DNA from: a virus
DNA: 44,771 bases
Direction: 5' to 3' (one strand)
UHGV virus genome: UHGV-0180729
The translations under genes and the position numbers were made by a program. The notes beneath the pieces were generated by a model, which did no database searches, was not told where the DNA came from, and worked only from the letters and a program-made list of their open reading frames with translations. This document shows positions 1,736 to 2,236 of this stretch, piece after piece (within the stretch, counting starts at the first letter, position 1; each line of letters starts with the position of its first letter).

Positions 1736-2236
1736 TTAACTATAATAGTTCGCTATTCGGTAGTCAACTTCTTTTAGCAAATTACTTTCAAAATTCTTTC
1801 TTGCCACGTTAGCCTGTTCAGGAGTTTCGAATAGTCCAAGGTAACGATATTGCCCGTTTACGGTAATTCCAGCCTGCCATTTACCGTGACTTTTGCGCCA
1901 AAACACGCCAGTGTACCCGCTTTTGTTATGACTTCTTCCAGTTTGAATGCCGCCTTTAGCCGCATTATCGCTATGAGCGATTAACTGGAGATTCTCTATC
2001 CTGTCATCATTTCTTATCGCATTTATGTGGTCCACCTCAAACCCTTCAGGTATAGGGCCGTTGTGGTACTCCCATATTAAACGGCTTCTTTGGTAGGACT
2101 TACGGTTAATGTATATCTGCACATACCCTGAATGGTGTAGGCTTCCCGCCTCCTGACCAGCTAACATTCTTTTTGTATTGTGGCGATAGATTAGTTTCCC
2201 GTTTTCATAAATGAAACGCTCCTGAACTAAACTCAT
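1736..2236 (-). CDS. HNH homing endonuclease with AP2-like DNA-binding domain
   Basis: Motif EVDHINAIRNDDRIENLQLIAHSDN (HNH) and C-terminal GVFWRKSHGKWQAGITVNGQYRYLGLFETPEQA (AP2-like); likely start MSLVQERF at 2236 overlapping the upstream stop (ATGA). Confidence 0.8.
   Translation of the reverse strand: MSLVQERFIYENGKLIYRHNTKRMLAGQEAGSLHHSGYVQIYINRKSYQRSRLIWEYHNGPIPEGFEVDHINAIRNDDRIENLQLIAHSDNAAKGGIQTGRSHNKSGYTGVFWRKSHGKWQAGITVNGQYRYLGLFETPEQANVARKNFESNLLKEVDYRIANYYS
1739..1767 (-). promoter_or_regulatory. Sigma70-like promoter, family A (TTGACT-N17-TATAGT), drives the SSB and polymerase genes
   Basis: Minus-strand reading TTGACTaccgaatagcgaactatTATAGT; near-identical copies at 5112-5140 and 42949-42977. 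Confidence 0.55.

Follow-up and report, generated by a model that had tools for sequence, protein, structure and literature searches.

Promoter-like modules at gene ends and the shared C-terminus of two unrelated nucleases in a Kagunavirus-type phage

The virus genome UHGV-0180729 (44,771 bp, analysed in full and called the window in the following) is about 90% identical over most of its length to the Escherichia phages phiWAO78-1, CR01 and K1G (Kagunavirus, Guernseyvirinae), the Salmonella phages of the genus Jerseyvirus being more distant kin. Its minus strand carries three promoter-like sites. They are probably (at a rough probability of 0.78) copies of one promoter module for host RNA polymerase, of the sigma-70 type, which serves the replication operons of Kagunavirus-type phages. 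Two of the copies lie within the last 11 codons of the preceding genes, one encoding an HNH endonuclease and the other a VRR-NUC nuclease, and the two unrelated proteins share their C-terminal residues. The module leaves a single reading frame open and thereby forces the shared peptide; common ancestry of the two gene ends is not required.

Three copies of one module upstream of replication genes

The three sites are the following.

1767..1739, minus strand: site 1, TTGACT accgaatagcgaactat TATAGT, with the -35 hexamer at 1767..1762 and the -10 hexamer at 1744..1739; upstream of the genes for a single-stranded-DNA-binding protein (SSB) and DNA polymerase
5140..5112, minus strand: site 2, TTGACA agtgaatagttcgctat TATAGT; intergenic, upstream of the gene at 4903..5079 and the operon reaching to the exonuclease and HNH genes
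42977..42949, minus strand: site 3, TTGACA acctaatagcgaactat TATAGT; upstream of the genes at 42712..42915 and 42515..42712 and of an SNF2 helicase gene

A preliminary description of this DNA had placed three minus-strand sites with 17-nt spacing and TATAGT at these positions, and all three were found. It had given TTGACA as the -35 hexamer of the whole family, which does not hold for site 1 with its TTGACT. The core that it regarded as common to the three sites is a 21-mer, AATAGCGAACTATTATAGTTA, which is exact at sites 1 and 3 only. The counterpart at site 2 is AATAGTTCGCTATTATAGTTA, with mismatches at 4 of the 21 positions and with a centre, TTCG, that is the reverse complement of CGAA; a search with the 21-mer misses site 2 even if three mismatches are allowed. 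Common to all three are TTGAC, the 17-nt spacer, the palindrome arms AATAG and CTATT, and TATAGTTA. Two of the three sites overlap gene ends, as had been described: site 1 is inside the last 11 codons of the HNH gene and site 3 inside those of the VRR-NUC gene, while site 2 is intergenic.

Mere chance resemblance of two short C-termini has only the shortness of the peptide in its favour, and its probability is practically nil. The 21-mer occurs exactly twice in the window where none is expected (100 shuffles), and patterns in which arms and -10 are fixed match 5 to 7 times, the expectation being 0.07 to 0.22, which rules chance out.

Each site is located directly upstream of a gene block that has the same orientation and a ribosome-binding site. 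The positions are conserved: orthologous sites are present in Kagunavirus and Jerseyvirus, and the SSB site is found in Cornellvirus too. Anatomy, frames, conservation and phylogenetic distribution of the sites are matters of direct observation.

Two of the orthologous promoters are already known. The GenBank record of phage Jersey (NC_021777) lists promoters at 29238..29266, inside the VRR-NUC coding sequence N271_gp39, and at 32925..32953, before the DUF2815/SSB gene. The two positions, the TTGAyA-17-TATAkT architecture, the overlap with the 3' end of VRR-NUC and the palindrome arms are the same as in the window. Jersey differs in that TTGATA...TATATT at the VRR-NUC end yields IEHYYI, not IANYYS, and in that an open reading frame (ORF) of 52 aa, ending at the TGA of the -35 hexamer, takes the place of the HNH gene between exonuclease and SSB. 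The Jersey promoters were annotated by consensus only, and the record is silent on the coding consequence. What our analysis adds is modest: the frame rule, the overprinting of a VRR-NUC helix, the variable slot between exonuclease and SSB, and the fusion of the HNH gene to a promoter.

We propose that host RNA polymerase would start at the three modules and so express the replication operons. Each module consists of TTGAC(A/T), a 17-nt spacer that holds a 14-bp palindrome flush with the -10 hexamer, TATAGT, and TA(A/G). The upstream genes would be translated into the module and halted by its built-in stop codons. That two of the copies lie inside the last 11 codons of upstream genes is due to the near absence of intergenic space in this genome, and the arrangement is ordinary genome compaction in a Kagunavirus-type phage.

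Promoters within the 3' coding end of a preceding gene are familiar from compact phage genomes such as those of the T7 group and T4. There, too, the same DNA provides the last codons of one gene and the promoter of the next, so that a repeated consensus imposes a repeated peptide. The window differs from these cases in the host-type promoter, in the additional palindrome, and in that the direction of evolution can be demonstrated for one copy.

One open frame and the end of the VRR-NUC gene

The two genes with embedded sites are the following.

42946..43230, minus strand: VRR-NUC nuclease of the Holliday-junction-resolvase type, 94 aa; its helix alpha3 (residues 82-93) is encoded by site 3
1736..2236, minus strand: endonuclease with HNH_3 and AP2-like regions, 166 aa; its ATG at 2236 overlaps the exonuclease stop codon (ATGA), its stop codon is at 1738..1736, and its end, EVDYRIANYYS-TAA, comes from site 1

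The identical ends noted earlier were confirmed: HNH reads ...KEVDYRIANYYS-TAA and VRR-NUC ...KQVDNLIANYYS-TAG, both giving ...VDxxIANYYS-stop. No other ORF of the window ends in YYS, and the same holds for phage Esher4; in ST20 and Jersey only the VRR-NUC ORF has such an end, YYS and YYI respectively.

Three-frame translation supports the earlier claim that this peptide is encoded by the promoter spacer and the -10 hexamer. The frame T-TGA-CA (frame 0) stops in the -35 hexamer, and the frame TTG-ACA (frame 2) ends with TAG (or TAA) in the left arm. The sole passable frame is xTT-GAC (frame 1), which yields (V/I)-D-x-x-I-x-x-Y-Y-S followed by TAA or TAG right after the -10 hexamer. In its consensus form, TGAATAG, the module closes this third frame too, and that TGA is present at site 2 and in the usual SSB promoter. 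Site 1 (CGAATAG) and site 3 (CTAATAG) are the window copies that lack it, and frame 1 is open at these two only. Arms and -10 fix I..YYS, and the common centre CGAA adds A-N. At the SSB promoter of relatives all three frame endings are found, and only the HNH gene reads through. The identical C-termini are no evidence for domain sharing or recombination between the two proteins.

VRR-NUC scores 21.2 in Pfam, just below the gathering score of 23.8. The AF2 model of the protein (pLDDT 92), in which residues 82-93 form the C-terminal helix, was matched by Foldseek to PDB entry 4QBN (E=7e-14, TM 0.85, 90% identity). This entry is saNUC from Salmonella phage SETP3, a dimeric enzyme that resolves Holliday junctions and is built of three helices and a four-stranded sheet (Pennell 2014, PMC4103454), for which cleavage of four-way junctions was shown weakly (PMC4103454). 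The two proteins are 90% identical over 92 residues and have the same alpha-beta-beta-beta-alpha-beta-alpha PD-(D/E)XK fold, and D35, E49 and K51, which are invariant, are kept. The tails differ, KLIEHYY in saNUC and NLIANYYS in the window protein, each following the promoter variant of its genus.

An exact 19-mer was found in 20 IMG/VR contigs, in all 20 at the VRR-NUC end. Conservation at site 3 was analysed in 46 distinct Guernseyvirinae sequences, picked by protein similarity and not by motif. Kagunavirus tails read QVDxLIA[N/S/D/G/H]YYS, those of Jerseyvirus QVDKLIEHYYI as encoded by TTGATA-17-TATATT. At least 95% conservation was seen at 7 of the 8 third-codon positions within -35, arms and -10, compared with 23 of the 77 elsewhere in the gene (Fisher p=0.0024; the test covers these 8 positions only, in kindred and non-independent sequences). 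The N4 centre and spacer positions 1-4 vary freely, also non-synonymously (N/S/D/G/H/R). The stop codon after the -10 hexamer is lost in several relatives (L038, L044, L054, L055, L059, L062, L070-L072, L074, L076 and L079; proteins P0076 and P0084), the protein becoming 4-10 residues longer (...YYSKHIPQQYKEL, ...YYSSHTPTI), and in one lineage it is extended by about 38 residues into the ribosome-binding site of the next gene. Since synonymous sites are conserved, the centre is free and loss of the stop codon, with extensions of 5-38 aa, is tolerated, selection at site 3 seems to act on the DNA elements more than on the peptide.

An alignment of 30 homologues revealed that V85 is invariant and that Q84, D86 and L88 are at least 90% conserved. 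Relatives of 40-60% identity and the protein of Cornellvirus SP-031 end in QVDxL[VI]xELFPxx (...QVDALVAELFPCD), without a -10 hexamer and without the palindrome. As these outgroups have the end and lack the promoter, the promoter appears to have been overprinted on an existing VRR-NUC end; judged by this distribution, the gene end is older than the promoter, and the overlap, common to Kagunavirus and Jerseyvirus, is itself old. In such an overprinting the -35 hexamer would have come to lie on Val-Asp of helix alpha3, an ancestral and invariant pair, and the left arm on Leu-Ile, and a change of the last residues from ...ELFPxx to ...ANYYS would have made the right arm and the -10 hexamer. The preliminary description took the promoter to be older than the gene ends or co-transferred with them. 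This has to be given up for VRR-NUC, where Q-V-D-x-L-[IV] is ancestral helix, and can be upheld for the -35 part of the HNH end (see below). The case would be a fully traceable example of regulatory DNA constraining a protein, with a promoter written over the final helix of a Holliday junction resolvase of known crystal structure, and with a mobile nuclease, unrelated to the resolvase, acquiring the same tail from a module that leaves one open frame.

From hexamers, spacing, position and conservation we infer that RNA polymerase initiates at the three sites. Besides the small sample of synonymous positions, several points weigh against the explanation by a promoter module. The window contains no more sigma-70-like matches in total than shuffled controls do; a match to the consensus alone is therefore no evidence, and we used conservation and position instead. 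Sites 2 and 3 (11/12) are the two best sigma-70 matches of the window, whereas site 1 scores only 10/12 and is level with several others, all three having the 17-nt spacer. A literature search of incomplete coverage returned no transcription-start mapping for any Guernseyvirinae phage. The frame argument by itself does not account for sites 1 and 3 having exactly the same N4 centre, CGAA. Finally, the conservation of the arms could be due to a DNA-binding protein rather than to promoter function as such.

The HNH gene and the variable slot before SSB

The genes on both sides of the HNH gene are the following.

2233..3474, minus strand: PD-(D/E)XK/DUF2800 exonuclease, whose 3' end holds the ribosome-binding site and the ATGA that start any gene in the slot
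1049..1675, minus strand: SSB (Enc34/DUF2815-type single-stranded-DNA-binding protein), the first gene downstream of site 1

The HNH protein matches HNH_3 with E=4e-18 and 65 bits (cut-off 24.8) and AP2 with 24.7 bits, below the cut-off of 33.3. The whole HNH region was present in one of 479 matching phage records, that of Esher4 (PQ579973.1), and in two Logan metagenomic contigs. The Esher4 copy (30533-31033) is 97% identical to that of the window and lacks annotation in this GenBank genome. None of 36 IMG/VR relatives has an HNH gene in the slot. Sporadic presence at one locus amid collinear genomes is what characterises homing endonucleases, and we regard the protein as a putative member of this class. 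It resembles free-standing HNH_3/AP2 homing endonucleases (annotated in SP-031 as ‘similar to phage TLS EndY’) in the HNH_3 motif with an AP2-like region, in the presence/absence polymorphism between near-identical genomes and in the location between conserved genes. It differs from them in the fusion of its 3' end to the promoter downstream, a trait that the family does not generally have.

The interval between the exonuclease stop codon and the SSB promoter is empty in 16 of the 36 IMG/VR relatives (L116-L151), the empty-site DNA of HNH-less genomes reading ...GAATAAAGTGTTGACACCTGAATAGTTAGC... The remaining slots hold one of at least five unrelated ORFs of 52-99 aa. Slot ORFs stop at the TGA of the -35 hexamer in 10 of the 36 genomes (...KIKR-stop, ...GWKG-stop) and at the TAG of the left arm in 5 (...FYLT[HP]E-stop), and in every filled slot with an inspected junction the ORF starts at the ATGA overlapping the exonuclease stop codon. 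The slot ORF of L144 ends in ...KKEDLE-stop and thus echoes the end of the exonuclease itself, a hint that it was inserted by recombination at a duplicated sequence.

All 36 HNH-less relatives have kept the SSB promoter, mostly as TTGACACCTGAATAGTTAGCTATTATAGT, and five of five HNH-less GenBank relatives (ST20, Jersey, G AB-2017, EP-B-K_E2 and Bas72) have a promoter at the same place before SSB. It had been suggested that the HNH gene was inserted in a way that preserved the promoter for SSB and polymerase, and that relatives lacking the gene should be compared. The comparison bears this out: the gene fills a hot-spot slot, and the promoter is not displaced. The slot would be a natural insertion site that leaves downstream expression intact. 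Synonymous recoding or C-terminal tagging of HNH or VRR-NUC would be likely to damage the predicted promoters of the SSB/polymerase and helicase operons.

HNH homologues of 54-69% identity were found in four other lineages, in all cases before SSB and in SP-031, L034 and L152 directly after the exonuclease. Their C-termini read ...EVDWILLK, ...SIDWILVK, ...SIDLKIA and ...GIDGRLK. In three of the four lineages (SP-031, L034 and L152) TTGACT-17-TAnAnT covers the last codons, those for (V/I)D included, and the 13 nt that end with the fifth base of the -35 hexamer (AAAAGAAGTTGAC) are identical between the HNH genes of the window and SP-031. More distant homologues (45-47% identity) can be aligned only to about residue 150-157 of 166, and their ends are unrelated. 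On this comparison the -35 hexamer travels with the gene end in this HNH subfamily, and what follows it is coding imposed by the local promoter. The HNH gene is an optional gene between the exonuclease stop codon and the SSB promoter that brings along a -35 hexamer (TTGACT) in its (V/I)-D codons. In the lineage of the window no stop codon is in frame, so that the HNH ORF crosses the whole promoter.

A stronger form of co-transfer would have promoter and gene-end codons as one older mobile unit that moved onto both genes, the common tail reflecting common descent. It agrees with the presence of TTGACT in the last codons of the HNH subfamily (4 of 5 lineages), with the 13-nt identity between window and SP-031, and with the prevalence of TTGACA in the SSB promoters of HNH-less genomes. 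However, TTGACT also occurs in the HNH-less relative L144, the tails of the HNH homologues after the -35 hexamer are unrelated (WILLK, WILVK, LKIA, GRLK), and QVDxLI of VRR-NUC predates the promoter. As the open-frame constraint yields the peptide without shared ancestry, we consider such a unit improbable.

A different origin of the HNH end is ectopic gene conversion, in which short-patch recombination between paralogous modules transferred the spacer and -10 hexamer of a VRR-NUC-type promoter (site 3) to site 1 of HNH-bearing genomes. This would account for the identical free N4 centre and can coexist with forced coding by a promoter module. The 31-nt module of site 1 is two edits away from the commonest VRR-NUC promoter variant (14 loci) and at least four, typically six, edits away from each of the 36 HNH-less SSB promoters, but modules so short and constrained discriminate poorly. 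Moreover, the centre is hypervariable at both loci, and the features of site 1 occur singly in HNH-less variants: L120 combines the centre CAAA with a TAAATC leader, and L144 has TTGACTACTG, one T-to-C change short of losing the TGA. HNH-less alleles that already have ACCGAATAGCGAAC would be intermediates. Esher4 has the same site 1 (CGAA) but CTAG at its own site 3; recent intragenomic copying from site 3 to site 1 is thereby excluded, and an older conversion is possible. Altogether we regard conversion as rather unlikely.

A recent import of the HNH gene was also considered. It is 69% identical to its Cornellvirus homologue, compared with 59% and 51% for flanking genes, a contrast too small to decide between transfer and vertical descent with loss.

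The palindrome, a candidate regulator and neighbouring elements

The spacers of all three sites contain the 14-bp box AATAG-N4-CTATT, whose final T is the first base of the -10 hexamer. Seven boxes, six perfect and one imperfect, are present in the window. They are listed with the elements of the adjacent regulator gene.

1744..1757: box AATAGCGAACTATT, in the spacer of site 1, abutting the -10 hexamer
5117-5130: box AATAGTTCGCTATT, in the spacer of site 2
42954-42967: box of site 3, inside the VRR-NUC gene end
5161..5174, minus strand: imperfect box AATAGTACCATATT, 44 bp from the site 2 box and beside the start of the divergent helix-turn-helix (HTH) gene
8584..8597: box copy AATAGTACCCTATT, in a divergent intergenic region
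10319..10332: box copy, on the plus strand within TTGCAC-17-TACTAT before the ORF at 10363
30567..30580: box copy, in the divergent intergenic region 30524-30704
5205..5420, plus strand: gene for a Cro/CI-type regulator (HTH_3 E=1.2e-12), divergent from site 2; candidate binder of the boxes
5129-5156, plus strand: candidate promoter TTCACT-16-TAAAAT ahead of the HTH gene, its -35 hexamer overlapping the site 2 box

The box motif itself is already known. For the Kagunavirus fBC-Eco01, seven PHIRE repeats with the consensus tgAATAGTa-ccTATTat-T were called phage promoters and assigned, without evidence, to a phage-encoded RNA polymerase (PMC9825357). The motif is the same, and the seven reported copies compare with the seven boxes of the window. 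In contrast to that reading, three boxes of the window lie in spacers of canonical sigma-70 hexamer pairs, and the remaining ones coincide with TTGCRC-17-TACTAT read from the other strand.

The boxes at 8584-8597, 10319-10332 and 30567-30580 share a conserved flank of about 40 nt, ...TATTAT[G/A]TTGGGGTG[T/C]GCAAGTAA, which on the opposite strand gives TTGCRC-17-TACTAT pairs aimed at the adjacent genes. All box copies apart from those of the three sites are intergenic. Two of the three with the conserved flank are in divergent intergenic regions and may be bidirectional.

AATAG-N4-CTATT is the commonest 5+5 palindrome, with six perfect copies in the window, six in ST20 and four in Jersey. It is absent from Cornellvirus SP-031, and no replacement palindrome stands out in the Cornellvirus promoters. 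In Kagunavirus and Jerseyvirus the box lies inside or against the -10 hexamer of every early and middle promoter. Around the start region of the HTH gene and its candidate promoter (window 5100-5204) stand two boxes spaced 44 bp apart, a layout that resembles an autoregulated switch. A site bound by a phage regulator is the best explanation of the conserved palindrome, and the divergent Cro/CI-type gene would be the obvious candidate for this regulator.

More specifically, we predict, tentatively and with the odds somewhat against it, that AATAG-N4-CTATT is the operator of the phage's own Cro/CI-type HTH protein. A palindrome repeated in the presumably regulated promoters and again beside the regulator gene, as expected of an operator, was found. 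The comparison across genera neither supports nor excludes this assignment: Cornellvirus has no box yet keeps a homologous HTH protein, and Kagunavirus and Jerseyvirus have the same arms with differing putative recognition helices. If the prediction is true, a single repressor or activator gates the entire programme of replication in a phage that is considered strictly lytic, and operator selection, beyond the sigma-70 hexamers, dictates I..YY(S/I) of the resolvase helix alpha3 and of the HNH tail. The conserved palindrome would thus open a testable regulatory circuit in a phage group used for therapy.

The palindrome may also be turned against the promoters themselves. The sites would then primarily be protein-binding sites, either HTH operators or homing-endonuclease targets, with incidental hexamers and no firing of a promoter. 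The invariant, perfectly palindromic arms around a variable centre would fit this, as would the rank of the palindrome in Kagunavirus and Jerseyvirus, its lack in Cornellvirus and the pair of boxes around the putative HTH promoter. However, TTGAC and TATAGT are conserved equally with the arms, synonymous sites included, the spacing is constant at 17 in most copies, and the SSB site of Cornellvirus has the hexamer pair without a box. Each of the three sites also stands immediately ahead of a gene block that has a ribosome-binding site. We therefore hold this explanation to be very doubtful; an operator inside a promoter complements the sigma-70-type module and does not replace it.

The window appears to be a whole genome, circularly permuted, as the boundary of the window runs through the DNA polymerase gene: on the minus strand this gene leaves at the left end (1 to about 1000) and resumes at the right end (43583-44771). 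For the same reason the ORF list shows only a 300-aa C-terminal fragment of the polymerase (43583..44485). The replication genes on the minus strand begin with the primase-helicase (7678..5438), followed by the divergent HTH gene on the plus strand, site 2 and small genes. The order continues with the PD-(D/E)XK exonuclease (3474..2233), HNH (2236..1736), site 1, SSB (1675..1049) and DNA polymerase, and ends with small genes, VRR-NUC (43230..42946), site 3, two small genes and the SNF2 helicase.

The genes for exonuclease (2233-2254) and primase-helicase (5438-5459) have a 19-nt 3' end in common on the minus strand, ACAGAGGAGGATTTGGAAT, which encodes TEEDLE. It is a module of ribosome-binding site and start/stop overlap, which produces ATGA in the exonuclease gene and TAG in that of the primase. 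ST20 has an additional ORF (9834..10130) after the primase, at the ACAGAGGAGGATTTGGAAT-type gene end. There seems to be another variable slot at the 3' end of the primase gene, and another instance of regulatory DNA that gives identical C-termini.

The leader of the SSB mRNA (window 1676-1733, minus strand) starts with CACTGGCCGGGCAGTTCCCGGAG and is kept in every relative examined; it is recognisably similar in Cornellvirus and in more distant contigs, while promoter and slot vary. A structured RNA was not indicated in this leader by an Rfam match or by the predicted fold, which does not go beyond shuffled sequences (z=0.56).

A 42-nt element with a GC-rich hairpin, AAGGCCCC-NNNN-GGGGCCTT, is repeated at 28571-28612, 33671-33712 and 40409-40450. 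It scores as a terminator on both strands and probably ends transcription from either direction where gene modules meet.

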